Source of the DNA: Blasia pusilla
Lineage: Eukaryota
DNA length: 64,000 bases
NCBI GenBank assembly: GCA_050084515.1
Contig: CM114271.1
Coordinates: 10,230,001 to 10,294,000, forward strand
Reading direction: 5' to 3'
Below, piece by piece: positions 11,350 through 40,694 of this stretch. Position numbers and translations under genes: made by a program. Below the pieces are notes generated by a model. That model was not told where the DNA came from. It ran no database searches and worked only from the letters and a program-made list of their open reading frames with translations. The first letter of the stretch is position 1. Each line of letters starts with the position of its first letter.

Positions 11350-11830
11350 GTGGCATGAGGTTTCGAGGGTCTCCACGTGAGAGACTACCTCAACCTCCTT
11401 TAGTGTCATCTTTAGACAAGGGGGAGAGTGTAGAGGAGTGTGTTACTACATTACCACACACAATTATTTGTCCTACCGCTTGGGAGTATGAGATGGATGA
11501 TCGGGGTGGAGGACTGCGTAGGTTTTTGGGTGCTATAGGCACTATAGGGCTACACCACTTCATTGCGTAGTTTAGGAGTTGGTATGACTCATAGCGAGCC
11601 ATGAACTCTAGAGAGGTCAACCTGTTTATAGCATGGAACGGTATGTTCCACCACTTAGTGGGGGCACCCATGGATGATTACCATGAGTTCTCCCACATAT
11701 ATGCCTAGAAGATTGAGGCATTGCGACTCTACTATGACCCACACTATATATCATGGACAAAGCCATTCCCAGATGATGAGGAGGAGGAGTCATGAGAGGC
11801 TACTTCCTCTTCCACTAGTGACGTTTTAGG
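11350..11830 (+). pseudogene. gag: gag remnant of DNMT-Gypsy copy 1
   Basis: LRRFLGAIGTIGL...FIAWNGMFHHLVGAPMDDYHEF aligns with PRRYLGAVGTIEL...FLAWKGLFQRLEGPPMDDYHEF in ORF 36897-37889. Confidence 0.8.
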
Positions 11831-11983
11831 AGGGATAACTTGCATTGGAGTAGTTCTCTTCTAGTTTTTTTAACTATGGTTAGTTCTGCAAACTATGGTT
11901 GGAAGTTTATCATAGTTACAAGTCTCAGTTAGTTTACTAGTTACCTCTTTAACTATTCTTGTGAGTTTTGGTTATGCTTAATT

Positions 11984-12130
11984 GTGCACATGGTGTCTTT
12001 GGCCTACCCCTTTGTCTTTGGCTTTGTTGTCTTTATCCTGCACATGGTGTGCTGGCCTACCCCTGTTGTGCTGGCTTGTTGTGTTGTCCTGCTCATAATG
12101 TGCTAGCCTATTCCTGGTGTGCTGGCCTGC
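11984..12130. repeat. Short tandem repeat, about 3 degenerate units of ~50 bp
   Basis: Recurring GCACATGGTGTGCTGGCCTACCCC...TGGCTT unit. Confidence 0.7.
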
Positions 12131-12139
12131 TCAGCCAGC

Positions 12140-13197
12140 CAAAAAATACCGTTAAAAATACCGTTAAGAAAATCTTGGCCGCACGTTATTGGTGGCCAAC
12201 TATGTACAAAGATGTAGGTAACTTTATTCAAAGTTGTGATGCATGCCAAAGAGCAGGTCGACCAACGGCTACCTCAAGGTGGCCTTTGATACCCATCATG
12301 CCGCTAGCGCTACTTGAAAAATGGGGTATTGACTTTGTGGGCCCCATTTCCCCCGCTACTCGCCACATAAGGCGAAAATATATTTTGATAGCTACCAACT
12401 ATTGTACCAAGATGGTGGAGGCGGTGGCTACGCGCAAAGATGATAGTGAGGCTATGGTCAAATTTTTATACGAAATGATTATCACCCGGTATGGTTGCCC
12501 GTTGGAAATAGTAAGCAATCGAGGCACCCATTTTCTAAACCAGACTATTCAGTCTTTAACGTCACACTTTCTCATTAAGCATTGGAAGACCACGCTCTAC
12601 AACCCTAAAGCCAACGGGTTGACTGAAAAATGTAACGGCCTGATCTGCCAGATATTGAATCAATTGATGGTTACATATTCCTATGATTTGGACATGAAAA
12701 TCTCCGCGGCTTTGTGGGCATACCAAACAGCCAAGAAGATTACTACAAAGTATACCCCGTTCTTCTTGACTTATGGCATTCATCCCTTAACACCTATTGA
12801 ATGGGCTTTGCCCACTTATCGAGTGTTGGAAGGAACAAGAAAGGAGGCGATCGGCGAGGTTTTCCAGGGAAGGAATGAGACCTTAGTTGCGTTGGAGGAA
12901 GCACGCACGTTGGCTTTACGCCAGACCAAACGTGTGCAAAACGAACGCAAGCACCAATACGATTGACATCTCCGGCCGCAATCTATAAGCGTTGGAGACC
13001 TGGTGGTGTTGTATGATAACCGTCGGATAAAGTTCCCCGGAAAGTTAAAATTGAAGTGGATGGGACCTTATCGGGTATTGTCCATCTATGATAACGGATC
13101 ACTGCAGTTGGGGACCTTACAGGGCAAATCCCTGCCCACTCGTGTCAATGGGATGCATGTTTGGCGGTATCATGAGCCTCAACCCTACCCGGACTGA
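12140..13197 (+). pseudogene. pol: Gypsy integrase (rve core and GPY/F motif)
   Basis: YWWPTMYKDV...CDACQR, WGIDFVGPI, YGCPLEIVSNRG, YNPKANGLTEK, WMGPY. Confidence 0.95.
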
Positions 13198-15375: not shown

Positions 15376-16649
15376 TGTGATACCCAAACTTTCGTACTTT
15401 TGAAGAAATACATCTGTTTATTCAACGAAGACTTGTATATACATTATGGTTATGATTATTATATATTATTATGGAGAGGAATGAGTTAGATTAGAGTGAA
15501 TCACGAAGCTCCAAGGACAAGACAGAGAGATAGAAAATCAAGGATTTGCCTAAGAGGAGAGGAGAATAAAAAAACAAAGTCTAAACACCCAGCAAGAAGC
15601 TTTGGAAGGACAACAAAGCTCTGTTAAGCTCTGTCTATGAAGTGCTTTGCTCCTGAACGAAGCATAACGAAGCATGAAGAAGAAGAGAAAAAAAATACTT
15701 CGCTCTTGAACAAAGCTTGAAGAACGAAGCACGTGGAACAAGAACAAAGAATGGAGCACTTCGTCTTCAAATCAGGAGAAAGAGCTTCGTCCTCAAGCAA
15801 AGCAAAAGAGGTCCAGACTTATCAGCGAAGCAAAGCTAAGATTGACAGTGATTTCAAGCGACACATAGTTAGAACAGTTATAATAGGAATATGCGCAACT
15901 CTTTGTATCAGATAGGTACTTAAGACAATTTTGTTATGCGGATTCATAGGGATCTAAGGAAAAGAGAGGAGCACCATAAATCTAGGTAGTTACAAATGTT
16001 GAAGAGACACGAGCTTCATCAAGAACGCTTCAAATCTTTGGATTACTCCTACTTTAGAGAGTATTTAAGAAGCATGGAAGTAGCTATCATTATCATTCTT
16101 TTACGAAGTCCTCATGTTGTAGGAATGGTCCGAGCAAGGGAGTAGTACCCTCTTGAGCTTGTATACACTTTTGAAGCTTTCTCATTCTTGATGGAGTAGT
16201 AAAGCAATCATTCATTCATTTTGATGTGCGATGCTTATGTCTGAGTGTTCTTTTTGGGTCGGCAGAGTGAAGAGTGAATCAGGCAAACCTTTCTCATCAA
16301 TGGAATAATCAATATGGAGTTGTAGGAAATCTGTTTGACAGAGAGATGGATTGAATTCCGAAAGTAGGAGAAGCCAGCTTTCATGTTGAGGTCTCTGTGA
16401 GGTTTCTTGATATCGAGAGGAAATCTACCTGAGCGTGCTATCAACTCCACTAGAGAGAATTGAGAAAAGAAACCTTGGTACTAAGAAAGATCCGAAGATA
16501 TTGATGAGACATTGAATATAAATCATACACATTTAAATACAACTATTACAACAGAATTATAATTTCGAACTCTCTTTTCATCAAACAATGATCCTCTTGG
16601 GGATCGAACTCAGTAAACGACTGTAAAATTGAAACTCTTATACATTACA
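15376..16649 (+). repeat. 3' LTR, family D
   Basis: Follows the PPT. TGTGATACC...CATTACA. Matches 10010-11227. Confidence 0.95.
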
Positions 16650-17330
16650 AGGAGCACGAGTCTCGTTCTCCAACATACATTTTGGAGAATGTGCCAATTT
16701 TGGGCAATTTGAGGCCTTGTGTGGTGACGAGTGCACATCAGGTGCGTACATGGATCGTCCTGCCAATGTTGTTGGATGCGGTGAGTGTAGGTTCACAAGC
16801 ACATCATCGGTGTCTTTGGTGGACCAACTTGGTACCACAAGAGGTTTTGTTGAGGGCGTATGAGAGAGTGGAGCGCCCCTCCAATTTGTTGGTGGATTCT
16901 ATTGTGGATCTTGGTTGTTGATCATAGGCAGTAAGGCACGATGATCGACCGCCGTTGATTGTGGTCAAGAGGATTGGCATGCCACGAGTAGCCTTTCCCA
17001 CATTGGTGAGTTTTCCTCCTTCCTATGCATTCAAGGAGGCCGGGCCTGGCTTGGTTTGGGATGACTAGGTACAGTTGGTGGAGCCCAATGCCGATGAGCA
17101 AGAGCGAGAGCAAGGGATGGGATTCCCCACAGGAGTAACTATCGTCCCTCTTAGAGGCATCATGACTTCATGTCTTGGGTCAGGCGATGGACCTGAATTG
17201 CTTGAATTGGATTTAGCTTAGAAGAGGTTGAGCAACGTCGTTTGAGGATGCGACAGATCACAACTACTGTGTTGGTGAGCCCCATGCCTCTCGAGAGGAT
17301 TGAGACAGTGGCTGGGGGCGAGACCTGAGG
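16650..17330 (+). pseudogene. C-terminal half of DNMT3-like C5 cytosine methyltransferase (copy 1)
   Basis: YILENVP (motif VI), SQAHHRCLWWTNL (motif VIII region), VLGQAMDLNCL (motif X region). Collinear with 34050-34690 (-). Confidence 0.85.
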
Positions 17331-17354
17331 AGATTGACATACGTGTTTTGACAA

Positions 17355-20263
17355 TTGCAGTTACATGGGCTGAAGCTACATCTAGGCAAGTGCAAGTTCT
17401 TCTATGGCCAGATTGAATACCTGGATCATACAATATACCCAGGAGGCCTTGGTGTGCAACCGACCAAGGTAGAGGCTATTTCACGCATTCCACGCCCTAT
17501 AGATGTGAGTAGAGTTCGTGCATTCATGGGATTGGCAAACTTCTATCGACGGTACGTCAAGGGTTTCAATTTGATTGCAAAGTCGTTGACCTTGTTGACC
17601 AAGGTGGATCAGAAGTGGCACTGGGGGGATGAGCAAGAGAGAGCATTTCAGCTACTCAAGGACAGATTGACATCTGCATCCATATTGAGGAGACCGATCA
17701 AGGGGCGTCCTTTCCAGTTTCATACCGATTGGAGCATATTGGGGCTTGGAGCTGTGCTCACCCTGCATGACAATGATGGAAGAGAGTTCATGGTGGCTTA
17801 CGCTAGTCGCTCAAATAATGTTGCGAAGGCAAAGTATAGCTTGTATGAGGGTAAGTGCTTGGCTGCGGTGTGGGTTATCGCAAATTTTAGGTGTTATCTA
17901 TCTGCCAAACCCTTTACCATCATTACTGATCATCAACCACTTAAGTGGTTGAGGGATTCCGATAAGCTTATAGGGAAGCTTGCGAGGTGGGCTCTTTCGT
18001 TGCAGGAGTATGACTTCTAGGTGGTGCATGAACATGGAACGCTCAACCAGGATGCAAATGGTTTGAGCCGAAATCCATGCCTGAGTCATCAAGATGCAAC
18101 TAGAGCTTGTTGGCATGGAGAGAGTGATGAGGATTTGATGCCAAGATAGCAGGCCTGAGCCTATTTGGGCTTGTTGCTATGGAGAGCTTGATTGCTGAGA
18201 CTTTGATGGCGAGGTCTGATGGAGAGTCCTTAGATCCAAAGGCCGATCAGGAGATGATAGATGGTAGAGATATTCATGACAATGGAGTAGTCTTGGAGTA
18301 TCTGTGTGCACGCAATGTTGCAAGCACAGTGGGTGTTAGCGAGGGGGATCGGATCCTACAGTGAACCAGACGGTTCAGATGGGAGGGGACACATGTGTTG
18401 CGAGTTTGGGAGGATGGTAGAGTACCTGTAGTGCCTTATCCTTCATAGAGAGCAGGTTTAGTGTGTCATGCCCACAAGGAGTTGGATCATTCCGGAGCGA
18501 AGCAGACGTACAAGTTGGGCAGATAGAGTATTGGTGGCGAGGCATGCAGACTGACGTTTAGCACTTTGTTTCTAGGTGCATGGTTTGTGATCGGGTCCGG
18601 GCATCATTCAATGCTCCGACTCAACAATTGCATCCACTTCCAATCATGGGCTTAGGTTATAGATGGAGTTTGGATTTTGTAGGACCTTTACCTTTGACAA
18701 AGCGCCATAGTCGTTATGTGTTAGTGATGGTCGAGCACTTCTCGAAGTGGATAGAGTTGGTTGCATTGCCTGACAAAGCGAGTGAGGGAGTAGCGTATGC
18801 CTACGTAGATCGAGTGCTGAGTCATTACGGCACACGAGCTGAGGTGTTGACAAACCAGGATAGGTAGTTCTACGGGGAGTTTCAGGCCTTGTATGATCAA
18901 GCGTTCATCAAGCATCCCACCACGTCTCCGCTAGTCCATCCCGAGGCGGATGGACTAGCGGAGTGGGTTGTGCAGAGGGTGAAGAGAGGATTATGCAAGT
19001 ATGGCTTGCAGAGAGGTCACCTAGGAGATTGGGACCTCCTGTTTCTATGGTTGGCGATGGGATACAGATTCAGCACGTAGGCATTCTTAGCGTCTTTCTC
19101 ACCGTACTTGCTACTTTATGGCCGAGATCTAGATTTACTTACGGCCATTCGTTGAGATGTTGGTGAGGTATTGACCCTTGATGACCCTGATGTATGGATG
19201 CGAGCATGTTCTCAAAGGGCTGAGTTGTTTTGGAGAGTGATGCCCATGGCGTTTGAGAACTTGGCGATTGCGCAACATCGGGATATGTTGAGTTATGCGA
19301 CTATTAGAGGAGGTGGTTATCGACCTACTATCCAGAGGTTTCATCAAGGAGACTATGCCTACTTGTAGCAAGCTGCTCCCACGACGTTGGATGTGATTGC
19401 AGGGTGCACTATCTTGAGAATGCGTGAGATTTTGCCATCCGATGTTCTCTTATTAGAGGGACGCCATGGTATGGTTTGAAAGGACCATGTATGTAACTGT
19501 GGGCCACATCATCTTCCGAACATTGACGGTACAGTTGATCTGAGAAGAGTGGTAAGAGGAGAGGAAGAGAGGAGAGAGGAGAGAAGAAGAGAGGAGAAAG
19601 GAGAGAGGAAGGTATTGCCAACCCCTAGGGCTCTCTTGGTTTGAAGAGAGTTTTCGACAGGTTGGAGAGAGGAAAGTTTTGACAAGTTGAAAAAGCAATC
19701 TTTTTCCAAAAAAAATTGGTGGTGAAAAAAATTTGATTTTTTTTTTGTAAATTTTTTTTAACGTTTGCAACCCATCGAAGTCCAACGGGTTGCAAGTTGC
19801 AAACGTTAAAAAAAACCCAAAAAGATTATTTTTTTCCTTAACAATAAAATAAAATAATAATAAACAAAAAAATTGTAACCTGTCAAATTCCAAGGGGTTG
19901 CACTAAGTTTCCTTGCTTCAAAAAAATCTCCAAAAACATTACGCACTTATTATCCATAATCTTCATATTTTTTGAAGAGAGTTTCAGGTTTTAGGCCCTT
20001 TGTGCCTTTTTTTTTAAACTAGACTCTCCTCTCTTCCTCTCTTCCTCTCCTCTCTTCTTCTCTCTTGCCAAAATACTAGCCCCCATTGGTCCGAGCTTAG
20101 CCGTAGTTCCTGCATGCTTGCGATGTATGTTGTGTGGTTCTGGCCATGGTGCAGCCACGATGCTAGTCTGTGATGGATGTTCGAGAGGATGGCATGTGGC
20201 ATGTGTGACGCCACCTCTCAGTAAGGTTCCTCACGGACGATGGATGTGTCCCAGATGTACATA
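17355..20263 (+). pseudogene. pol: Partial RT, RNase H, integrase and PHD finger of copy 1
   Basis: GKCKFF..IEYL, VRAFMGLANFYRRYVKGF, TDWSILGLGAVL, TDHQPLKWL, WSLDFVGP, HPEADGLAE. C-terminal CMLCGS...LVCDGCSRGWHVACVTPPL...WMCPRC. Confidence 0.92.
19545..20085. mobile_element. Non-autonomous TIR insertion (Mutator-like MITE) in the integrase-PHD linker
   Basis: GA-rich left end is the inverted match of the CT-rich right end. Imperfect 10-bp flanking duplication TTGATCTGAG / TTGGTCCGAG. The host reading frame resumes after it. Confidence 0.6.
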
Positions 20264-20445
20264 GAGTAGGTAGTTCTAGATTCCGACTTGTGTTTGTGAT
20301 ATGGATGACAAGAAGGCGACTAACGATGGGGCCACATGAGCATCTGACCTTCTTGCTCTTAGAGTCCAATTGATGTATATCATGGTAGGTAGGGATAGAT
20401 GGCTATTTGTGAGTTAGAGGGACCTAACCACTAGCTAGGGGGATG

Positions 20446-21359: not shown

Positions 21360-24300
21360 CCTTCAGTTGGGCACATGATATCTTTGGACATACATGCCAC
21401 TCATTCGTGTCGGAAATGCTTCTCCCTTCAAAGTTTCCACTTGTAAGGAACCATTCTCAAAGATTTCCAAGACTCGATAGGGTCCCATCTAGTTTAGTTT
21501 CACCTTCCTTGGGAACTTAAGATGTCGATTGTCATAGAGTAGCACCAATCCTTTCTCGTACTGATTGTGGTCGGAGGTTCTTCTCATAGCGTCTCTTTCT
21601 TTGTGCTTGGACTATCTTTGTATGGCTAAGAGCAAGATGTCTTGCCTCCTCCAAAGCTACCAAGTCTTCGTTCCTCTTTTTGGTGATGGCCAAATCTTCA
21701 TCGTTCCTTTCTTCTTCTAGAATCTGGTAAGTGGGCAAGTCCCATTCGATTGGAATGAGGGGTTGAATCCAATACGTCAGATAGAATGGCATGTACTTGG
21801 TAGTGACCTTCTCCGCTGTTTGGTAGGCGCAGAGTGATGTAGGGATCTTGGTATCCCAATCATAGGAATAGGTGATAATTAGGCAGTTTAAGATCCAGAA
21901 AATAAGCCCATTGGACTTTTCTGTCAACCCATTGGCTTTGGGGTTGTAAGGTGTAGTCTTCCTAGGCTTGATAAGGAAGTGGTCGGTCAACATCTCAACC
22001 ATTTTTTTTAGGATAGCCATATCTAGTAATTATCATCTCATATAGAAACTTGGGCACTGCCTCATTGTCATCTTTGCGAGTAGCCATTGCTTCCACCATT
22101 TTGGTACAATAATCTGTAGCAACTAAGATATATTTTCTGCGCGTCTGCCTAGTGGCTCGTGAAATAGGTCCCACAAAATCAATGCCCCATTTCTCAAAAG
22201 GGGCCAAAGGAAGGATAGGAACGAAAGGCCAACGAGAAGTCGTTGTTGGCCTTCCTTCTCTTTGACAAGCATCACACTTAGGGATGAAGAGCCGGACATC
22301 TCGATACATTTTTGGCCACCAATAGCGTGCGGCTAGGATCTTCTTAATAGTATTCTTGAGTGCATAATATCCTCTTGCATCCTCCGAATGCATAGCAGCA
22401 ATCACTCGAGGAACTTCCTCTCTCTCTAAGCATCTTCGGTATTCTTCGTCCGTGCCAAGCTTGAATAGCACATCATGGCAAAGCTTATAGGGCCCTAACT
22501 TATGTAGAAACAGTGTCCGTTCTTCCGTTATCATGAGGGTTGGAAATCGGAGAGTGATGAGGAAGCGCATAATATCTCCATAAGCGGATCTTTGCAGAGT
22601 CTTCTTGCTGATTAGGAACAGATCTTTGTCTCGGAAGCTATCTTTGAGAGTCTTCATGAGATCAGCCTTTAGCTTCTTTAAGCGTGACAAGAAGTCCGCG
22701 TTGGTATGTATCTTTCCTGCTCTTGTTACCACGTCAAATGTGAATTCTTGCAATAGTAAAATCCACCAAGCAATCCTCCCTAACAAATCCGCTTTCACCA
22801 CTAAGGCTCGAAGCGCAAAATGGTCGACATGGAAAACAACCGTGTACCCCAGCAAGTAATGTCGGAACTTCTTGCAGGCAAAGACCATCCCCAAGGCTTC
22901 TCTCTCCCTACTAGTGTATTTTTGTTCCGTAGCCTCAAAGTTGGCGACCTGCATAGTATATTTGGGAATCCTTCTTCTTTGTTTCATCCAACCGGCTTAG
23001 TACTACTCCGATCGCAAACAAAGAAGTGTTTACATACACCTAGAATGTCTTCAGCCAATCAAGAGGAAGAAGCACAAGATCTGTCATCAACGCCTGCTTC
23101 AATTCCTCAAATGCTGCTTGGCAGGTGGGAGTCCATTCCCACTCCGTTGTCTTCTTTAGCAGGGTAGTCAACGACTTTGCCTTTATGGCATAATCCTTAA
23201 TGAACCGGCGGTAGTACCCTACATGGCCCAGGAATCCTCTTAGCTCACAAAGACTCGTGGGGGCTTCCAACTCCGCAATTATCTCCACCTTAGCCTTATC
23301 CACTTTGATACCGCGCGAGGATACTCGACGCCCCAACAAGATACCCTGCCTCATTGCAATGTAAGATTTCTCCAGGTGCAAAGATAGTTGTACTTTTCAG
23401 CAGCAAGTTAAGGTTAGCTTCAACTTCTGTAATTGCTTGGCTTCAAAACTAAAGACACAAAAGTCATCCAGAAAGATCTCTAGGAATCTTCATAAGTAGT
23501 CGTGAAAGATAGATATCATCATTCTTTGGAAGGTGGCTGGTGTGTTGCAAAGCCCAAAAAGGCATAACTCAATAGGCAAAAGTGCCTCAATCGATAGTGA
23601 AGGTAGTCAAGGCCCGGTCCTTCTCTCTGATGGACACTTGATTGTAACTTGAATATCCGTCCAAAAATGTATAACATTCATGATCGGCCACTTTAACTAA
23701 GATAGTATCAGTAAATGGCAGTGGGTGATGATCCTTCATGGTAGCTGCATTCAGCTTCCGGTAGTCCTGATAAACCTTGATCTTTCTTGACTGCTTCTTT
23801 GGTACAAGGACTAGGCCAGATACCCATTCACTACTCATCACAAGATATATGACTCTTGCTTCCAACCGCTGGTCAATCTCATCCTTAACCATTAAAGAAT
23901 ACTTGGGATTCAGCCCATACCGACGCATTCGCGCAGGCGTTGTCCCGGGTTTAAGATCAATCCTATGTTCTCCATACCTGGATGGCACTCCCTTCATCTC
24001 ATCCATAGTATAGGCAAACACGTCAAGGTACTCTGCAAGTAAGGTCTTATATTGTGAATGTTCAGAAGTAGACAGATCTGTAGATAGACGTAAAGCCTTG
24101 GTGTTGGTGAAAAAGACTTCTTGGTAGTCCTTTTCCTACACCATCTTTTCAATAAACTGATATGTTGTGAGCCCAACTCGCTCTCCCCCTGGGGAGGGCC
24201 TACTCTACTCTAAGTGTAAGAACTCTTCATCTATCTCATAACATTCCAGATAGCAAATATAGGACGAGGACTCTATGTCGGCCGCCGAGCCCTGATCCGA

Positions 24301-29240: not shown

Positions 29241-29849
29241 TTGTAGAGCTGCCATAGCGAACGTACGAAGAGCAAATTTTGAAATTCTTGGTAACTTCTT
29301 AGTTGAGATAGAAAAGTTTAAAAATATTTCATTATTTTGGAAAGAAAAAGTAAAACTTAGGATCTTGAGGTTAAAGTGAGTGGAAATTTTATTTAGTGGA
29401 TGTTGACTCAATATTTATGGGGCTTAGTGGAGTATAAGCCAAATGTGAATAATTTTAGCAGTTGATCCTTAGTTTAAGGAGTTAGTGGAGTGGGAAAAAA
29501 CAAAATACATTCAATTTTTGAGTAAGGTTAAAATAGATCTATCTTTATCCACATGAATGATATCGTAATTACTATTGAATTTCATCGTCCATTCAAGCCG
29601 TTCTTACTCCGTATGTTGGCCACCGTCGACGACGTTCTTCACCGTTGTTGATTGGACAGTGACCTTTTGGATTAATGGGGTCGGAGTTTTCTTTCCGCTC
29701 TACTATGCATAGTGTTTTGTAGCCGCCTGACAATCATCAGCTACTCAGATGGTTGATGGAGTCTGAAAAGCTTACACGGAAGCTTTCTAGATGGTCACTC
29801 TTATTGTAGGAGTACGATTTTCAGGTTGTCCATCGCCTAGGACATCTGA

Positions 29850-30004
29850 ACTAGGATAAGGATGGGTTGAGCCGTAGCCCATGTACGAGCTTGAGCGATG
29901 CAGCTAGAGTGAGGTGGCATGGTGAGAGTGATGAGGATTGGTGTCGGGTTGGCACGCATCTGCCTATTTGTGTTTGTTGGCTATGTCTGGTCAGCAGGAG
30001 GCAT
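29850..30004 (+). pseudogene. DNMT-Gypsy copy 3, left part (RNase H end and linker); host of copy 2
   Basis: DGLSRSPC...RWHGESDED..GWHASAYLCLL matches GLSRNLC...RWHGEVDEE..SWHASAFLCWL (31880-32428). Confidence 0.85.
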
Positions 30005-30585
30005 TGTCGTGCCAATCCACATCATCATACAACATACATTGCTGACATACCATACTCACATACATACATAACATAGACGAGAGCATCCACAAACACAAGT
30101 GTACCACAACTGAAATCCGTGAAAGACCTATTGTCATAAAACATGTATATAATCACATACAATCGAGCCAAACCCACTCCACGATGGGAGAATCTAGGTC
30201 GAAGCTTGTAGGAAACACCATAGCCAAGAGCTCTACTCACTACCAAGGCTAACTCCCAACGCAACAGGCTCAACTCAAAGAACTAACTGTTCTTTGAGTG
30301 CACTCCACCTTATATCTTCCAACCTACGAGCGGGCCCTACTGGAAAAGTCACCCTCAACTGAGTAACCCCCAACCCTATGTATGAAATTGCATCTCTACC
30401 TAGACACTGCGGCCCTACATAAGGTATGGCCTCTACTAGCACACTATACTCTACGACATAATCCGTATGGTCATTACGGTGTCGATGAATCCACATCATC
30501 ATACAACATACATCGCTGACATACCATACTCACATACATACATGACATAGACGAGAGCATCCACAAACACAAGTGTACCACAACT
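30005..30585 (-). repeat. B1-A2-B2 3' terminal repeat block of copy 2
   Basis: 30014-30111 is nearly identical to 30488-30585. 30111-30475 is nearly identical to 39313-39676. Confidence 0.95.
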
Positions 30586-30758
30586 CGCCCCCCTAACTGG
30601 CGGTTAGGTCCCTCTAACTCCCCAGGTAGCCCTATACATCTACTACATGCTATACACCTTCTTGGGTGCACGAATCAGAAGGCCGGGTGCCAGGTTGCCC
30701 CATCGTTAGTCGCACATCTGTAATCCATATCATGCAAATATCAAGTCATCTACCTCTC

Positions 30759-32000
30759 CTAAGTACATCGAGGACAAACCCACCTTCCAGTAGGAACAAC
30801 ATCCATACGTGGAGTCAAACACATCATGTGCCAACACCTAGAACACCGATCACACACCAACATACGGGCTGAGTTACCAGCAGACCCACACAACATGCAC
30901 CTCAAGCTAGCTCGTATCATGGCTAAGCTTGGGTCAACAGTACCATCCACATTTGGAAGATGACATGGCGCACAATTACGCACATGGTCCTTCCAAACAA
31001 CTCCATCACGACCCTCCAACATGAGAACTCCATAAGCTAACACCTCGCGCATTCGTAAAATAGTGCGGCCTGCCGTCACATCCAACGTTGTCAGTGCAAT
31101 CTGCTGCAAATAGACGTAGTCCCCCACATGGAACCTACGAATCGATGGTCGATAACCTCCACCCTGAATGGTTGCATACCGCAATGTATCCCTATGTTGA
31201 GCAATGGCAAGATTCTCAAAGGCTGTTGGCATAACTCTCATCCATATCTCTCGGTCATCAAGGTTCACCACCTCACTAGACTCCCAACGAATTGCTACTG
31301 GCAAGTCTAGATCTCGGCTATATAACAGAAAATAAGGTGAGAAGGAAGCCAAGGATGCTTGGCGACTGAACCCATACCCCATGGCTTACCATGGCAACTG
31401 AATATCCCAGTCTCCAAGATGCCCCTTATGCAGGCCATACTTGCGCAATGCCCTCTTCACCGTCTGAACCACACGCTCAGCCAAACCATCCGCCTTTGGA
31501 TGATCTCAAGACGTGGTCTAATGATCAATCAACTCCTTGTCACACAAGACGTGAAACTCACCCTGAAAATCTGTACCCTTGTCGGTCAGCACTTCAGCTG
31601 GTGCACCAAAATGACTAAGCACTCTATCAAGAAACGCATACGCCGTTCCCTCACTTGCCTTATCAGGTAATGCCACCAACTCATTCCACTTGGAGAAGTG
31701 CTCCACCATCACCAAACATATCAATGATGTCGTACAGTCAACGGTAACGGTCTCGCAAAGTCCACACTCCAAAGGTAACCCAAACCCATAATAGGCAAGG
31801 GGTGTAATTGTGGTGTAGGGGCATTGAATGATACCCTCACCCGATCACAAACCATACAACATGACACCAACTGCTGCACCTAAGTATGCATGCCACGCCA
31901 CCAATACTGACCAAGGAGTAAGCTATACGTACGCTTTACCCCAAAATGTCCCAACTCCTCATGGGCATGTCGCACAATGCGCTCTCTCTGAGCCAAATGC
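30759..32000 (-). pseudogene. pol: DDE integrase with C-terminal PHD finger (copy 2)
   Basis: HAHEELGHFGVKRT...YWW (HHCC), VEHFSKW, VLTDKG. C-terminus CMLC-x9-CDRC-x4-HMMC-x14-CPRC (Cys4-His-Cys3). Confidence 0.93.
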
Positions 32001-33816
32001 GGCACTACTCGTACTCTACCATCCTCCCACACACGGAGAATATGTGTTCCCTCCAATCGATACCTCTTAGCACGTTGAAGAACACGATCTCGCTCCTTGG
32101 CACTCACTATGCCTGGCACCCTACTGGTCCATAGGAACTCCAACACCAACGCATCATCATGAATATCACGCTGATCCGTACCGCCACCTCCAACCTTAGG
32201 ATCTGAAGGCTGGCCATCTACCCTCTGACTAGAGTAAGATATCATGTGGTCCTCCATACTAGAGTCCACCCCTAACCAACATAAAAAGGCGGATGCATGC
32301 CAACTTGGCACCATCTCCTCATCAACCTCGCCATGCCATCTAGCCCCAGTTGTATCCTCTTGGCTAGTACATAGGTTCCTACTCAACCCATGAGCATCAA
32401 GGTTGGTTACTCTAGGTCTATGTACCACCTGGAAGTCATACTCATGTAAGATAAGAGCCTACCGTGCAAGCTTCCCTGTAAGCTTGTCAGACTCCATTAA
32501 CCACTTGAGCAGCTGGTGATCAGGAACAAGGGTAAACTGTGTGCCAAACAAGTAGCACCTAAAGTGTGCCATAGCCCACACTACTGCCAAGCACTCTCCC
32601 TCATATGAACTATAGCGTGACTCTGCTGCATTATTCGAATGACTTGCATAGGCCACCACAAACTCCATGTGCTCATCATCATGTTGTGTCAACACCGCTC
32701 CAAGTCCCAACCTACTCCAATCAGTATGTAACTGAAATGGGCGCCCTCTGATAGGTCTCCTCAAGATAGGCGCCGCCACCAACTAGGCCTTAAGCTCCAT
32801 AAAAGCTCTCTCCTGATCATCTCCCCAGTGCCACTCTTGATCTGATTTCAGCAATTGGTTTAAAGGCTTTGCCATAGCACTAAATCCCTTCACATACATC
32901 CGATAGTAGTTCGCCAATCCCATGAATGCTCGAACTCTACTCACATCTACCGGACACGGAATAAGTGTAATAGCCTCCACCTTTGCTTGCTGAACTCCCA
33001 AACCACCTGGATAGATCACATGACCCAAGTACTCAACATCCTCATGGAAGAACTTACACTTTCCTGGATGCAAACGTAGACCATGAGCTTTCAACCGCTC
33101 AAACACCATCTGCAAATGTATCTGATGCGCCTCCACCGTGTTACAGAATACCAAAATATCATCAATGTAACACCAAACAAAATCCAACCCTGCTAGGATC
33201 CTGTCCATCACTCTCTGAAACTCGGCAAGTGCATTCTTCAACCCAAAGGGTAAGAATTTCCACTGGTACAAACAATCCTTGCTATGAGAGTTGACACCCC
33301 AAAATGTTGTTTTGGCCTTGTCACTCTCATGAATCGGCAATTGATGGTATCTCGCCGAAGATCCAAAATCTGAAAATCTTTGCCTGTCCCACCACATCAA
33401 AGATCTCCTCGGTGTAGGCATGGCATACCTATCGCCTTGGTTTGCCGATTGATAGGACGGTAATCTCCACACATCCGCCTATCCGTGTAGTTGCCATGCA
33501 TATCCTTTTTAGCGTGATGACATGTGGTCGATGCATACTCTCCATGTGACAACTCCACTAATCCAGCCTCCAAAAGGTCCAACGTCCTACTCTGAATCAG
33601 GTCCCTCTCCATATCACTATATCGGTAGGGACGACGGAAGATTGGCGTATCACTAGCCAAATCAATCCGTATACCGGGTCCAACCAGAGCACCCAACTCC
33701 TTCATGCTGAAGGCAAAACAACTCCTATAAGCATGTAGGAACTGTGTCAAGCATCGTTTCTCACCTCCCGTAAGCTTGGGCCCAAGTAATGGCTCCCAAG
33801 TCTCCTCCACTAGCAC
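32000..33816 (-). pseudogene. pol: Reverse transcriptase and RNase H (copy 2)
   Basis: RRMCGDYRPIN, LPFGLKNA, YIDDILV, GKCKF, LHTDWSRLGLGAVL, YSSYEGECLAV, DHQLLKWL. Confidence 0.95.
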
Positions 33817-34049
33817 ACTAGAGGAGAGGGCGATGCCATTGGTCTTTCATAACCCCTCACAAGATGGTACACCCTTAGCTACACCATCATCTGAGCAAAT
33901 AACTCCTCCACCAGCATGAGCAACCAAATCCACATGCCCAGCCATCACATCCCATTTATTCCAAGGATACAAAATCCTACTCTCCTCGCCCCCAGCCGAT
34001 GCCTCTACCGTCCCGGTAGCCATCAAGCTCATTACAAGGGGTGGAAGAC

Positions 34050-35040
34050 CCACAGACATAGTCCGAAGTCGACGCTGCTCGGCCATACCAAGACTCAAAA
34101 TCCAAGTCAAACAATTCAGATCCATGGCCTGACCCAACACATGACGTCGTGAAGCCTCATAAATGGAAGCAACCGCTATCACACCACTAGCAAATCCCAT
34201 CCCATGCTCACTCTCATCAGCGTTAGGCTCCACCAACTGTCGCACATGAGAATCCCATACAAGCCCGGGACCACCTTCCCTGTAGGCATGTGACGAGGGA
34301 AAACTCACCAATGTGGGTAGTGCCATCCTAGGCTAGCCCACACGGTTCACCACTGCCATGAGTGACCGATCAATAACCCTCACCACTTGAGAAAGTCGCC
34401 CAGTATCCAAGATACTATCCACTGTAAGGCAAGGATCCCGCTGCACTACATCATATGCTCGACGTAGAACCTCCCTAGGCAACAAGTTTGTCTACCACAA
34501 GCATGGATGATGTGCACGCGAGCCAACTCGCGCTGCATCCAACAACACCATTGGTCCAATCCAAGACCGCACCTCATGAACACTTGCCATCATTTGGGTC
34601 CGAGTGTCACCCAACAATGGAACATTCTCCAGAATGTAAGCTAGAGCATGTGCCTCATGAACCTGAAGATGTCGTAACATCGTAACATCTCCCAAAACAA
34701 TCGAGACCTAGGGTCGTGTAATCCCTCACCACGACCAGCACGTGTATGACCCTGACATGGCCATCCAGCAATCACCAGATCCACATGATCAACCCTCTCA
34801 AGGTCCTCCGCCCCCAACAATGCGATGTGTGACGGCAAAGCACGCTGGTACCCACAAATAGTTGATGGCGGCAACAACTCATGATGTCTCCGCATCAACT
34901 GACCAATCTGTCGGGATGAGACTCTCTGGGCCGTCTCATCTCGCTCCACATACCCGTATCTCCGCACAGAAATACCGGCCTGCAACAATGCAGCCAAACC
35001 AATGCTTATCCCACCAAAGAGATCTAACACACAAATGCCC
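34050..35040 (-). pseudogene. DNMT3-like C5 cytosine DNA methyltransferase domain within the retroelement polyprotein (frameshifted)
   Basis: Motif I ICVLDLFGGI (~35008-35036), motif II YVE, motif IV DLVIAGWPCQG (PCQ 34752-34760), motif VI YILENV (34621-34629), motif VIII region AHHPCLW*TNL, motif X region RRHVLGQAMD. Confidence 0.92.
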
Positions 35041-35456
35041 TCCGGCGGATACTGCCATACAATGGGTGTAGTATCCAAAGGGGATAACCCAACTTGATCA
35101 GAAGTAGGAGTCCGCCGTGGGGCCTCCTCTTCCTCGTGAGGTATAATAGCCTCACACCAAGCCTCCTGCCGTAGTGCACCGCCTAAACTCCAAAGTGGCA
35201 CATCCAACGATGAGGATGCCACTGCTGCAAAAATAGGGACCTCTTCTACCTCCTCATGCACAGGAGAATCCATAGCAGAAACATTACCCTCCAAAAAGTC
35301 TCCTGGCCAAGGGACTACTCCACTAAAACCAGCCACAGATACTAACACTATTGGGGAAGACCCTCCCGGTCGAGCCCCATAAATAAATCTCACAGGAACT
35401 TGGCTCATACGTCCATCCCCGGACTGCCAACCAGGTCTATAAGACGCTGTCTCAGT

Positions 35457-35882
35457 CTAGTAATCCATCTGAAAACCCATCGGGTACAATATTGCTCCTC
35501 CAACTAGTACATCATACGACTCAGCTGATGTGACTACAGCAGATATTCCCAACCGGGAGCTATCAGTCGCATGATCTGGTCTCATCTGTACAGAAAACTT
35601 CTCCCGTGTCATGAATTGAGACCTATCATTGGCTCCTCCAAGTGATGTTTGAATCTGGAATGGGCAAGGCTCAAGCTCTGACCTCTGAATATCCAAACCA
35701 ATACATGCCGCTTTTCCCAACATCAAAGGTTGGGCACCAGAGTCTAACAATACTCTATCTGGTCTATACACCTGTCTTGTAGGACTCACCAATCGGAATA
35801 TCCCACTCCGGTTGTCCAACATACATAGACCAGGTGTAAGCCTCTCACGATCAATGGCTGGTCGGGCTGGTAATGCATCCAT
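35457..35882 (-). pseudogene. Retropepsin-like aspartic protease (copy 2)
   Basis: VLLDSGA catalytic motif and YDVLVG. Confidence 0.9.
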
Positions 35883-37889
35883 CTTCGCCGCTGCTGCCTG
35901 TCAAGTAGCACTAGTACTCAATGCTACACCTGACATAGAGGGTCGCTCCACCGCAATACCCTCATCCACCTCAGCACGTGTAGCAGTAACACCCCCACGT
36001 TCACACAACGTGGCGGCTAGGTGAAATACAGGAGCTAAGTCAACTCCTAAAGCCATCAGCTCCATGGCCGAAAACAATGGGGATCCGAACACTGAAGTTG
36101 CCATCCGCTATACTGCATTGGATGCTGCATCCGTGTCTACTACACGCGATGTAGATGCCTCAATCTCCACTTTCGGCTCAATAGGCTGCATAGGAACCAT
36201 GGATGGAGTCCTAAGCACCTCAGACAACAAGAATGACTGGGGAAGCCTAGCCTGCCTTTGAGCCTCACCCCTCTGTGGGTCCAACTCCACAGTAGCACCA
36301 CGTGGTTTTGACGTTCAAGTGGCTCCTCTCGTAACTGCAGCCGATGCCTCAACCTGTGCTGCACTTGCCATATAAGAGAGATCATCCCCTCCATAAGAGA
36401 TGGAAGCCCTTGCTCCCGAATCTGATCTATGCTGGATACCAGCCATAGTAGCCAACTTCTCCTCCAACTGCTCAATCCTGGCAGCCATGGCTGACTCTGT
36501 TGTAGTGGTAGGGGTAGCCACCGTAGGCTCCAACCACTGGTCCACCTCTACCACCCCTACCACCTCCACCACCTCGGCCTCTCGGAGCTACTCCACCACG
36601 GCCGCGGCCTGATCTCAACTCTGGATGAAGATCAAAGCAACGCTCTCAAGGATGATCTGGTCTCCCGCAATGATCACATTGAGTTGGGTCCGACTGAGGC
36701 CCATCCTCTAAAGTCCGTCTCCCATCCTCTTGGGGACAAAACTTCCTAACATGATCACCTCCACATGTCCAACATGACTGTCCTTGCTGCGGGGCAGCAA
36801 ATGAAGGCAATGGTCTCTACGCAAGTGTCCCTGTAGGACTGGCGACCGAGGTCGTGTGTACCCCCACGACTCCCACTACTACTACCACCACCACTACTAC
36901 GAGAGGCGTGAGGTGGGTGCTGAACACGAAGTAGTAGTTGTATCCCTACTAAATGCGGATGTCACCACTCTCTCCTTCACCATGTTAAGCTCAATCTTCT
37001 CAGATAGAGCAAACACATGGGTCAATGTGGGTGAATCATCACTCATAAGTGTAGCATCACATACCCTGCGGCGCAACTCCCTGTCCAAGATCCCATACCA
37101 AAACTCGACTGCTTGAGCCTCAGTCACACCCTGGGTGACTGAAATCAAACGTCGCATACGAGTGTATGCCTCACGAAGACTCTCACCAGTCTTTCGCTCA
37201 AATTCTTGAAGGCTCCTCAACTTCTCTGTCTTCACTCCCTGATAGTTCTTCTTCAACCTCTTGAAGAACTTTGCAACGGGGATAAACGATGGTGGGGCAC
37301 TAGTACCTCCACTAGTACCCCCACTGGTACCTCCAGTGGTACCCCCACTCCGGCTCGTACTCGTACCACTCAACGTCGGGCTGGCTAGCATAGTAGGAGC
37401 ACTACTACCAATACCACCATGGGTGATAGACACATAGCCTGGAGACCAATATTGTCTCCACGCCTCAATCTCAACAACATGGTCCTTCCTAAACTCATGG
37501 TAATCATCCATGGGTGGTCCCTCAAGTCTTTGAAACAACCCCTTCCAAGCCAAGAAGGGTGTAAACAACGTGGCGTTCCGCAACATTTGCATATCACACC
37601 ACGTATCAAACTCCTGCATGAAGTCCTCCAACTCAATGGTGCCCACTGCACCCAAGTATCTTCGTGGGCCCTTCATGGCCCCATATATCCCGTCCATGTC
37701 CCAAATCAATGGAGCTGCAACACTCGTTAACAACGTAGAAGACTCGGTGTTTGGAACACCCTCGTCCTCCTCTTCATCAACCGTCGAAAGTGGAAAAGGT
37801 AGCCGATACCTAAATCCACTCCGTGTGAAACCACCACTATCCGCACCACGGTCCCCAACCAGACCACCCGACAGCTCCGCGATGACCAA
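35883..37889 (-). pseudogene. gag: gag with two CCHC zinc knuckles and linker (copy 2)
   Basis: GESLREAYTRMRRL (MHR-like). CWTCGGDHVRKFC (~36735-36774) and CDHCGRPDHP*ERC (~36637-36678). Confidence 0.85.
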
Positions 37890-39301
37890 CGCCGATGCCG
37901 CACCACCACCAAATTATCACCACTAAGTAACCAAGTGACGTCGATGTCGCTATACTATTCTAGCTCTACTAGCTATGGATGTAGGCAACCTAACCTGTCA
38001 TCACCACAAGAAGCCTCCCAGAGTCTACTGGTCATCACTCCAACCTCACTACCGGTAGCACACAGGAGTAACACTACTCTCGAAATCAGCATCAACCCTA
38101 ACAATGGGCGCCCAAGCAAAAAGCAATGATGGAGGGGATCCAAACAAAGGAAGTCCAACGACAATCCTCCAATCGCAAATGGAAATCAAGGTAACACAAT
38201 CCACCAAACGTGGCGCCCCCTGAATCCACAAAACCCACCACACAATCCTAATGCAATAGCTACTCCACCGCGGGTCGGTGACGTGCTAGTCGAACTCGCA
38301 GCACCTGAAAATATCACCTGCATGGAGAGGCTACACCGTACTATGCGCTAGAGGTCCATCAACCAAAAACCTGAGATGCATAAAGCGCCTAACACCTCTC
38401 CGAACAGCACCAAATGAGCTACAACAGTGTGTACACTGGCATAGTTAAGAACTCAGCAGTTAAGCGTCTTCCAGGCAGAATAGCCCAAAGATGGGTGACC
38501 AGTTATACAACACTCAATCCACAAATCCTGCAAAAATTGCCTCACGCCCAAGCAAGCAAGCTTGCTTGCTTGCTCCTTGCTCCTTACTCCGCCTCTCACG
38601 CCCACTCGCCCTGAGCTACCACGAGTTGCCTCAAAGCCTCCAATGGGATAGGAGTCTCCAACAATGAATGAGTCACCAACCAACCAGCCCCTCCGATCCG
38701 CTGTCCACCATAGACCTTGAGCTAGTCCGCGAAATTTCGATCAGCAATTACTCCAAAAATCCTCAACCAAAATTGAATATGTTTCAATCGGAATTCAATT
38801 GACCACCATAGCTATCTCTCCACAAAAAATCAGCTACAATCAAGCTCTGTACTCCGAGCTAAAAATCAGACAAACTTGCTGTCCATACACCTCCAGAATC
38901 GCAAATCCGACAGCGCTTCCGCCAAGTTTCATGCACGCAGAAACCTGCAACGCTCCACACACTCAAGCAGATAGCTTCACATGAGATCACAATACAAGTA
39001 GCAATAGGAATCTCTCACCCTATCTGGATGAACTTTAACAGAGCTTCCGCACTCCAAGCTCTCCACATCAGAAAACCGTCGAACACGAACCAGAATCTTC
39101 AATCCTTGATAACTTCCAACTCCCTTGACGAAATCCGGCGATCTAAAGCATGTTGGAAAGCTCTTAGCAAGGCGCTTCTTTCCCAACCAACCACACACTA
39201 GATTCACACCTCCAACATAGGCCACAATCCACGGCTGAGTACATAATCAGCCCTAACCAGATCCTATTGATCTACAATCGAAGCTACCATTGATCTACTT
39301 C

Positions 39302-39313
39302 AGTTCTTTGAGT
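39302..39313 (-). promoter_or_regulatory. Putative self-priming primer-binding site of copy 2
   Basis: Minus-strand ACTCAAAGAACT at the end of A1 is the exact complement of AGTTCTTTGAGT (39486-39475) inside A1. Confidence 0.65.
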
Positions 39314-39676
39314 GAAATCCGTGAAAGACCTACTGTCATAAAACATGTATAGAATCATATACAATCGAGCCAAACCCACTCCACGATGGGAGAATCTAGG
39401 TCGAAGCTTGCGGGAAACACCATAGCCAAGAGCTCTACTCACTACCAAGGCTAACTCCCAATGCAACAGGCTCAACTCAAAGAACTAACTGTTCTTTGAG
39501 TGCACTCCACCTAATATCCTCCAACCTAAGAGCGGGACCTACTGGAAAAGTCACCCTCAATTGAGTAACCCCCAACCCTATGTATGAAATCGCATCTCTA
39601 CCTAGACACTGCGGCCCTACATAAGGTATGGCCTCTACTAGCACACTATACTCTACGACATAATCCGTATGCTCAT
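39313..39676 (-). repeat. Terminal repeat A1 of copy 2
   Basis: Near-identical to 30111-30475. Confidence 0.95.
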
Positions 39677-40694
39677 GAAAACATCCACTCTATGAGGGAC
39701 GTTGGATGGTGAGTCCTCAGATCCAGATGCTAGTGAGGATTCATCAGGGACTGGAGACATCCACGATGATAAGATGGTCTTGGAGTTCCTGCGTATTGGT
39801 GTCTTAGCAAGCACGGTGGGTGCTAAAGAGCAAGATCGAGTCCTATAGCAAGCCAGGAGGTTTAGGTGGGAGGGTGGATTGAGTTGGTGGAGTTGGTAGC
39901 AGTTCTCCAAGTGGATTGAGTTGTGTTGTGATCACGTACTGATAGATCATCGTATGACTTCTTGAGATCATCGGGAGGCAAATGGTTTGGCAGAGAGAGT
40001 TGTGTAAACAGTGAAGAGAGGATTTCACAAGTATAGACTTCATAGAGGACACTTGGGAGATTGGGACCTACAATTTCCGTGGTTGGCGATGGATTACCGC
40101 TCTGTCGGCAGGCATCCTTGGCATCATTTTCATTGTATTTCTTGCTCTATGGGAGAGAGCCAAAGTTACCATCGTCGATTTGACAAGATGTGGTTGAGGT
40201 ACTTGACCTTCATGATCCAAACATATGGGTACAAGAGTGTTCTCAACGGGCTGAGTTCTTTCAGAGAGTCATGCCAATGGTGTTTGAGGTACGGGACTAC
40301 GCGTGGAGGAGGCTATCGTCGAGGGATTCGGAAATTTCATCCTCAAAATTATGTCTACCTATAGCAAACAGCGCCGACAATATTGGACGTGATGGCAAGA
40401 CGTATTATTGTGCGAGTACGAGAGACTTTACCTTCAAGAGTCCTTGTTCTAGAGGGTCATGATGGTATCATTTGGAAAGATTATGTGCGTAATTGTGCGC
40501 CATGTCATCTTCCAAACGTGGATGGGAGGATTGATCCAAGCTTGGAAGTTGTTCTTGAAGGCCTGAGATGCATGTTGTGTGGGTCTGCCAGAGGTGCAAC
40601 CACCATGCTAGTTTATGATGGGTGTTCTCGAGGATGGCATATGTCATCTTTCACGCCGCCTCTTGACTTGGTTTCTCAGGGACATTGGCTTTAG
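39677..40694 (+). pseudogene. DNMT-Gypsy copy 3, right part (internally deleted integrase and PHD)
   Basis: DIHDDKMVLEFL, GHLGDWDLQFPW, VRNCAPCHLPNVDG..CMLCGS..DGCSRGWH. Confidence 0.88.

Follow-up and report, generated by a model that had tools for sequence, protein, structure and literature searches.

The window analysed here is the whole stretch of 64,000 nucleotides of the Blasia pusilla assembly GCA_050084515.1 (contig CM114271.1, positions 10,230,001 to 10,294,000). Its segment 30005-39676 is one Ty3/gypsy-type retrotransposon on the minus strand, as seen from stop-to-stop open reading frames (ORFs), Pfam matches and colinear tblastn alignments to intact relatives. Read along the minus strand the order is gag with two CCHC knuckles, protease, C5 DNA methyltransferase (MTase), reverse transcriptase (RT), RNase H, integrase and PHD finger. 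Very probably we are dealing with a dead Ty3/gypsy copy that carries a DNMT3-like MTase between protease and RT, an integrase-PHD fusion and repeats in the layout A-coding-B-A-B, and that is nested in an older copy. The parts of the element are as follows, from its 5' to its 3' end.

39313-39676, minus strand: repeat A1, the direct repeat at the 5' end, 364 nt long, 96.4% identical to 30111-30474
37914-39312, minus strand: leader between A1 and the gag start, about 1.4-1.6 kb, without a convincing ORF
36616-37913, minus strand: gag, aligned by tblastn to residues 1-354 of the relative P0002 with 61-71% identity
36616-36810, minus strand: two CCHC zinc knuckles, read from the sequence, the second one broken by a stop
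35460-35900, minus strand: protease-like region, colinear with residues ~560-760 of P0002 (tblastn)
34051-35042, minus strand: DNMT3-like C5 DNA methyltransferase, a pseudogene (PF00145 on the N-terminal piece, tblastn, three-frame reading)
32786-33478, minus strand: RVT_1 (reverse transcriptase), Pfam 90 bits
32462-32782, minus strand: RT_RNaseH, Pfam 104 bits
31883-32458, minus strand: Integrase_H2C2 zinc domain, Pfam 39.9 bits
31521-31844, minus strand: rve (DDE core), Pfam 32.1 bits, just below the cutoff of 32.6
30765-30899, minus strand: PHD finger at the C-terminal end of the integrase, Pfam 40 bits, E-value 4e-10
~30586-30596, minus strand: purine-rich tract TTAGGGGGGCG, just before B1
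30488-30585 plus about 13 nt up to A2, minus strand: repeat B1, 98% identical to B2
30111-30474, minus strand: repeat A2, 96.4% identical to A1
30005-30111, minus strand: repeat B2, at the 3' end, with 98% identity to B1, ending ...GGCACGACA at 30005

With RVT_1, RT_RNaseH, Integrase_H2C2 and rve all present, the Pol region follows the Ty3/gypsy order protease-RT-RNase H-integrase, and the integrase region (30765-32458, minus strand) is colinear with the relatives P0044 and P0236 by tblastn. The original prediction, made from the letters alone, had seen a gypsy-type retrotransposon with a C5 MTase inside its polyprotein and had given the same minus-strand domain order, and both are borne out by Pfam and by the colinear alignments to intact relatives. 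Some parts of the window copy are weak on their own. The gag piece reaches 18.6 bits for Retrotrans_gag, under the cutoff, two gag pieces gave no match in the Pfam search and neither did the protease-like piece or the three C-terminal pieces of the MTase, so that homology of the unmatched pieces is shown via the intact relatives. For the protease region these include P0217 and P0230-P0232, which are homologous over it and carry a precomputed PF13650. The knuckle region of gag is flanked by one frame change on each side. Near 37250-37350 (37308-37345) gag also contains a low-complexity stretch rich in Gly, Thr and Ser, SGGTTGGTSGGTSGGTS, of which 36 bases are skipped by some RNA reads, suggesting length variation among copies. 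Over 30001-40000 the plus strand has a GC skew of -0.19 to -0.28 and a positive AT skew, the coding minus strand thus being rich in G and T.

PF00145 matches the N-terminal piece of the MTase (34644-35456, minus strand) with 29 bits against a cutoff of 22 (E-value 9.4e-7), which answers the check proposed with the original prediction; the MTase domains of intact relatives score 29-45 bits on the same model. Against Marchantia proteins the N-terminal piece gives an E-value of 2e-61 over 147 residues, and the three C-terminal pieces align to intact relatives at 68-74% identity by tblastn. C5 MTases are described by the motifs I, IV, VI, VIII, IX and X. In the relatives motifs I (FxGxG), IV (PC), VI (ENV), VIII (RxR), IX and X are all present in canonical order. 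The window copy reads GWPCQ in motif IV, and in its motifs VIII (AHHPCLW*TNL) and IX (ESEHGMGF) residues that are invariant in the relatives are lost. The earlier claim that all core motifs are in place therefore holds for LDLFGGI, GWPCQ, ENV and LGQAM, whereas VIII and IX have decayed and the reading frame is interrupted. In total the copy has 14 in-frame stops over the aligned segments and at least five frame changes; the MTase contains two of the stops, at 34494 and 34335, and one of the frame changes, near 34650-34680. That the element encodes an MTase, as had been stated with no word on decay, is right for the presence of the domain, but the copy is a pseudogene and nothing is encoded here now. 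Segment 30005-39676 is a fairly young yet already dead copy.

The repeats of the minus strand are arranged as A-coding-B-A-B and not as long terminal repeat (LTR)-coding-LTR. A1 probably starts a few bases further out, at TTTCATGA, which corresponds to TGTCATG of the relatives, and ends ...GGATTTCA. Directly after A1 the relatives have a short conserved word, tctagaaaaactc or ctcaaagaactc. When self-repeats were examined in 25 loci, the full A...B-A-B order was present in seven (L034, L035, L038, L045, L073, L078 and L080), and another five showed a B...B pair at LTR-like spacing with A1 lying outside the contig. We read ends, junctions and duplications by eye in eight elements, namely the window copy and these seven loci. 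A begins TGTCATG-like and B ends ...CACGACA, and the internal junction between B1 and A2 is CA-NN-TG in seven of the eight. Around A1...B2 a perfect 4-bp target duplication is found in five (L035, L038, L045, L073 and L078), in L080 and the window copy it is kept at three of the four bases, and L034 has none. Measured against a plain LTR element, the purine tract, the TG...CA-type ends and the 4-bp duplication are there, the repeats are A-coding-B-A-B and a primer site was not recognised. TG...CA ends together with a target duplication mark an inserted unit as a DDE integrase makes it, and it looks like the element carries an internal copy of its two ends abutted at B1-A2. DIRS-type retrotransposons use a tyrosine recombinase instead of a DDE integrase and leave no target duplication. 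Membership in DIRS is ruled out by the DDE integrase (Integrase_H2C2 and rve) and by the duplications in five of eight elements.

In a protein search the N-terminal MTase piece found 22 matches, 15 from Marchantia polymorpha, two from Calypogeia fissa, one from Sphagnum troendelagicum and four unnamed, so that all 18 matches with an organism name are bryophytes. One of the relatives is a Marchantia polymorpha protein of 1278 residues with gag, CCHC, protease and MTase and 75% identity. A further protein search added one Sphagnum fallax protein, and a Scenedesmus 'pol' is a named member of the lineage as well. Homologous proteins already sit unremarked in the public annotations of Marchantia, Calypogeia and Sphagnum. 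Using a profile built from an alignment of seven intact domains, a library of representative proteins at 50% identity yielded 12468 proteins at E-values of 1e-3 or better and 432 at 1e-30 or better. A scan of metagenome contigs found at least 287 relatives among the 600 pattern-matched stretches examined, and 80 of these loci were kept. The MTase domain is present in all 80, which were chosen via the MTase and are therefore silent on cousins without it. Of the kept loci, 65 have a protease upstream of the MTase at a distance of no more than 1.2 kb, and 59 have RT downstream at no more than 1.5 kb. Where such neighbours are missing the contig is mostly short or truncated; in none of the 80 does RT or RNase H stand directly upstream. 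The MTase domain is a trait of a very large lineage. This agrees with the original prediction of a family trait and not a one-off capture, as seen in bryophyte proteins, metagenome loci and the library search; instead of being absent from most family copies, the domain is present in the relatives. In its N-terminal MTase piece the window copy is 74-75% identical to P0007 (Sphagnum troendelagicum), P0006 (Calypogeia fissa) and P0002 (Marchantia polymorpha), a likeness that spans a moss and two liverwort classes. When the window copy is compared with the metagenome loci, the median synonymous divergence (dS) amounts to only 0.84. Both observations could be explained by slow evolution, horizontal transfer or mixed samples.

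Sequence and fold both suggest that the MTase domain is DNMT3-derived, on best-match evidence. A phmmer search of P0002 against PDB sequences gave 27 matches, of which the top 25 are all DNMT3A, 3B or 3C (best E-value 1.7e-8), and M.HaeIII and a plant DRM appear at 1e-3 and 2.6e-3. An AlphaFold model of the domain of an intact relative has a mean predicted local distance difference test score (pLDDT) of 63 and a predicted template-modelling score (pTM) of 0.70, with a poorly predicted target-recognition part. Using this model in Foldseek, only DNMT3A, 3B and 3C chains were among the matches listed (E-value ~3e-12). The nearest proteins in the further protein search that do not belong to elements are two fish DNMT3B (E-value 1e-12). 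The DNMT3-like character named in the original prediction is in line with these results. In comparison to the catalytic domain of eukaryotic DNMT3A/3B, the non-rearranged motif order and the AHRxRxxW wording of motif VIII are alike. The identity is ~21-25%, motif IV is GWPCQ or GWECQ against GSPCN in the aligned DNMT3A, and the element domain sits inside Gag-Pol without PWWP and ADD. Neither of these two reader domains was found by Pfam in the element proteins, whereas the fish DNMT3B matches carry both (precomputed Pfam).

For the conservation of the catalytic residues we compared 141 domains, non-redundant at 80% identity and taken from predicted proteins, which biases the set towards intact copies. 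All 141 have the catalytic Cys, the Glu of ENV and, in motif VIII, the first Arg; 140 have the second Arg of this motif and 140 the Gly of motif I. The Pro before the catalytic Cys is replaced by Glu in 63 of the 141 domains (GWECQ for GWPCQ, as in P0044, P0103 and P0050), and this occurs in both architecture types described below. Ratios of nonsynonymous to synonymous divergence (dN/dS; Nei-Gojobori, NG86) of the window copy against the closer loci are 0.21 for the MTase (27 pairs, median dS 0.84), and against the loci 0.14 for RT, 0.19 for the protease and 0.17 for RNase H. The MTase is, as judged from these alignments, under purifying selection like RT, protease and RNase H and appears to evolve as the essential enzymes of the element do. 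A lack of purifying selection, which would have spoken against the original prediction, was not seen, as dN/dS is well below 1.

The place of the MTase within Pol is not the same throughout the lineage. By Pfam, the long relatives P0044, P0236 and the Scenedesmus pol show another order, namely RT-RNase H-MTase-integrase-PHD, whereas P0247 shares the order of the window copy with the MTase before RT. P0088 was also noted, along with P0044 and P0236, as having the MTase between RNase H and integrase. The before-RT order is that of the window copy, of Marchantia and of all 80 metagenome loci. In a blast-based labelling of 256 proteins 72 fit MTase-before-RT and 105 MTase-after-RT, and the PHD finger at the integrase C-terminus goes with both orders. 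We reconstructed a FastTree phylogeny of the 141 domains with the two fish DNMT3B as sole outgroup, against which the element domains form a single group. One branch with an SH-like support of 97 sets apart the full 82 after-RT domains plus 22 unlabelled ones; before-RT domains are absent from this side and make up the remainder of the tree. This topology fits one relocation of the MTase module within Pol, with a root set by a long two-sequence outgroup and a FastTree support that is weaker than a bootstrap.

Transcription was examined in three sets of raw RNA-seq reads labelled with the same species as the best-matching DNA data set, no RNA run being listed as one that contains this exact stretch. 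On 29500-40200 we placed 2003, 1864 and 2132 reads per run, covering 28 of 30 bins including those of the MTase. Only 24-42 reads per run are at least 99% alike to the window copy and 98-99% of the reads are 95-99% alike, and the latter thus come from sister copies. First mates lie on the plus strand ~10-100 times more often than on the minus strand, which in usual stranded libraries means sense RNA of the minus (coding) strand. At several stop positions of the window copy the RNA reads carry another letter, so the transcribed copies are less decayed. Some reads (14, 26 and 43 in the three runs) join 31231 to 32206 with nine other letters between, which points to a transcribed sister copy with a replacement or deletion of ~1 kb in the integrase region. 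An RNA joint from 30474 back to 30003 (472 bases) was considered as a circle junction and rejected because every genomic copy has the B1-A2 junction and B1 and B2 are near-identical.

Around the element the window contains further members of the same family and other transposons.

29672-29983, plus strand: left half of an older family copy, RNase H fragment (tblastn to P0014 residues 1061-1139)
39720-40691, plus strand: right half of the older copy, with RNase H end, integrase and PHD (tblastn; ORFs with PHD-like sequence)
16628-20442, plus strand: second, diverged and decayed family copy with MTase C-half, RT, RNase H, integrase and PHD region (blastn, tblastn)
868-1500: protease-like fragment (tblastn)
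11511-11762: gag-like fragment (tblastn)
11965-12966, plus strand: lone integrase ORF
21544-24135, minus strand: a different gypsy-type element, no MTase detected
60685-63099, plus strand: Copia-type element (gag_pre-integrs, RVT_2)

The copy at 30005-39676 is nested in the older plus-strand copy of its own family, which resumes at 39720 with residues 1134-1186 of P0014. The second copy shares ~73% nucleotide identity with the first and lacks the N-half of the MTase. Two of its plus-strand segments align with the C-half, 16628-17140 with 53% and 17215-17322 with 42% identity, and RT, RNase H and integrase follow to ~20442, in agreement with the second copy that had been predicted to keep this half. 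Lying on the opposite strand, it shows the reversed sign of the skew seen over 30001-40000. At least four family copies or fragments occur within the 64 kb, a clustering that may reflect an insertion preference or simply a repeat-rich region. A host gene was not recognised within the 64-kb window, the remainder being other transposon debris.

Putting these observations together, a model for the live copies can be proposed. In them the domain, made as a section of the Gag-Pol polyprotein, would work as a de novo DNA methyltransferase and methylate the reverse-transcribed DNA of the element itself or its fresh insertion. Such a self-directed methylation, also suggested by de Mendoza et al. 2018 (Nat Commun 9:1341, PMC5890265) and in the original prediction, in which a packaged enzyme could act on the cDNA or the target site, is the single most likely role we can name, offered tentatively. 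By recognising histone tails, the PHD finger would guide where integration takes place. The internal B-A junction would be a stored copy of the joined termini that rebuilds the ends in replication, as proposed for DIRS-type elements, with the insertion itself being done by the DDE integrase; for this combination we see about equal reason for belief and for doubt. Slightly more doubtful still is the broad picture as a whole, in which a large and transcribed green-plant lineage with a hybrid replication by gypsy enzymes, DIRS-like split repeats that store the joined termini and a DDE integrase making 4-bp duplications carries a selected DNMT3-derived de novo MTase that moved once, within Pol, from a place before RT to one before the integrase, and always goes with a PHD-bearing integrase.

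Several points weigh against this model. Enzyme activity has been shown for no member of the lineage. The isolated domain of KnitGypsy-Dnmt3, the related element described from Klebsormidium nitens, gave no methylation in yeast, human DNMT3B being inactive too and the result being called inconclusive by the authors (PMC5890265). Our link to this element is by published description and not by alignment, and the protein searches returned no sequence named Klebsormidium. The observed/expected ratio of CpG is 0.59 in the window copy, 0.48-0.52 in its flanks and 0.57 in the window, and thus gives no compositional trace of self-methylation. At the middle of the MTase, 76 of the 80 metagenome loci have an open frame that falls short of the 350-residue domain, most genomic copies being broken, and a tRNA-type primer binding site next to A1 was not recognised by eye. 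Among closely related, mostly decayed loci dN/dS rises to 0.52 for the MTase and 0.43 for RT, which weakens the selection signal and fits neutral decay after insertion. To these come the bias of the conservation set towards intact copies and the only moderate confidence of the structure model. Finally, the frequent Pro-to-Glu change is unusual for C5 MTases and could mean an altered chemistry, which keeps both a non-catalytic role and an altered substrate alive as rivals.

Instead of serving as an enzyme, the domain might be retained for binding DNA or chromatin, tethering the pre-integration complex together with the PHD finger, similar to the chromodomain of chromoviruses, which are gypsy elements with a chromodomain on the integrase C-terminus. 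Such a function would suit the constant company of MTase and integrase-PHD fusion, the clade with the MTase directly before the integrase, the Glu in 63 of 141 motifs IV and the negative yeast result for the Klebsormidium domain (PMC5890265). We regard it as unlikely, as 140-141 of the 141 domains, at 35-75% identity, have retained the catalytic Cys, the Glu of ENV, the Args of motif VIII and the Gly of motif I, which is beyond what a pure binding role requires. No better placed is an enzyme acting in trans, be it on host genomic DNA, where silencing would be blunted or misdirected, or on RNA such as the transcript or the primer of the element. A large polyprotein may be processed and so release the domain, a primer binding site was not recognised, and in their discussion de Mendoza et al. 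do not settle on a role, which may depend on the host (PMC5890265). On the other hand, the closest relatives by sequence and fold are DNMT3-type DNA enzymes, a DNMT2-type RNA methyltransferase was found neither in the 27 PDB sequence matches nor among the Foldseek matches listed, and the methylome of K. nitens is reported as not unusual (PMC5890265). Self-directed methylation by a DNMT3-type enzyme, tentative as it is, remains our preferred reading over both.

The origin of the domain also allows for more than one view. The bryophyte lineage could have gained it independently of the Klebsormidium element, which would be a third origin. This would agree with the protein searches, in which no Klebsormidium protein was among the matches, with the two Pol positions in different clades and with the recurrent acquisition of DNMT domains by retrotransposons that has been documented (PMC5890265). 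It sits poorly with the shared and unusual combination of gypsy enzymes, a DNMT3-like domain in Pol and A-coding-B-A-B repeats, and with the grouping of all 141 element domains against the only outgroup, the after-RT type being one clade within; we would therefore be surprised if it were true. Of the window copy's four MTase pieces a single one passes Pfam alone, which might even raise the thought of a chance match, an assembly chimera or the one-off capture of a host gene fragment. This last explanation can be regarded as refuted, chance match and one-off capture being ruled out by the E-value of 2e-61 to Marchantia proteins and by hundreds of colinear relatives, to which comes the second copy in the window.

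Cytosine methylation is the main weapon of the host against transposons, and a transposon that keeps its own selected de novo methyltransferase is therefore a paradox. As far as we are aware, it has been described only in a dinoflagellate and a charophyte alga, and for the gypsy type activity could not be demonstrated. The present results extend the gypsy-type lineage to land-plant-type genomes and show it to be very large and transcribed in sense orientation. Marchantia polymorpha, in which the lineage is abundant, is a transformable model plant with good genetics and methylome data. With this knowledge, and if our reading is true, the role of a transposon-encoded methyltransferase would be testable in a land plant. 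It could also be possible that the split-repeat anatomy together with the target duplications informs how the replication strategies of LTR and DIRS elements relate to each other.

Among known systems the closest by description is KnitGypsy-Dnmt3 of Klebsormidium nitens, a gypsy-type element with a DNMT3-related, non-rearranged MTase in its Pol ORF, conserved catalytic residues and purifying selection with Ka/Ks below 0.2 (PMC5890265). The figure legends call 'A-coding region-B-A-B' typical of DIRS and describe the K. nitens Gypsy-Dnmt3 as having the DIRS repeat structure with gypsy domains (PMC5890265). The elements studied here are alike in the DNMT3-like domain in a gypsy Pol, the A-coding-B-A-B repeats, the catalytic residues and the purifying selection (0.21 in deep pairs), and differ in their hosts, which are bryophyte-type genomes and a chlorophyte relative. 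We filed the window element with KnitGypsy-Dnmt3 because both share the oddity of the repeats and a DNMT3 domain in Pol, and, compared by description, it is probably of the same kind. SymbioDIRS-Dnmt3 from Symbiodinium likewise has a DNMT3-like domain in its polyprotein, A-coding-B-A-B repeats and two coexisting domain orders, and its enzyme shows de novo CG methylation in yeast (PMC5890265). It uses a tyrosine recombinase, whereas the elements here have a DDE integrase (Integrase_H2C2 and rve) and 4-bp target duplications, and according to the same paper the gypsy-type RT/RNase H is of different ancestry (PMC5890265).

PHD fingers in green-algal gypsy elements are known (PMC9940879, PMC6673714). 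The Chlamydomonas elements of this type (for example Gypsy-7a_cRei; Craig et al. 2022, PMC9940879) resemble ours by description in the PHD finger adjoining the integrase; they have LTRs made of subparts, and an MTase domain is not reported in the passages concerned. A precedent for a gypsy integrase whose C-terminus bears a histone-reader domain is provided by chromoviruses (PMC6673714), the reader here being a PHD finger and not a chromodomain, with an MTase carried as well. Searches of full-text papers brought up no description of retrotransposons with a DNMT in Marchantia, in liverworts or in mosses. The words Marchantia, liverwort and moss are absent from the main text of de Mendoza et al., whose supplementary figures may contain sequences from bryophytes or a domain map for the Klebsormidium element, which would matter for the novelty (PMC5890265). 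The novelty for land plants that had been claimed at the outset stands insofar as no describing paper was found, and is smaller than thought in that design and repeats match KnitGypsy-Dnmt3. In comparison with these systems, what may be new are the two domain orders, the stored end-junction combined with target duplications, and, for genomes of the bryophyte type, how large the lineage is and that it is transcribed.

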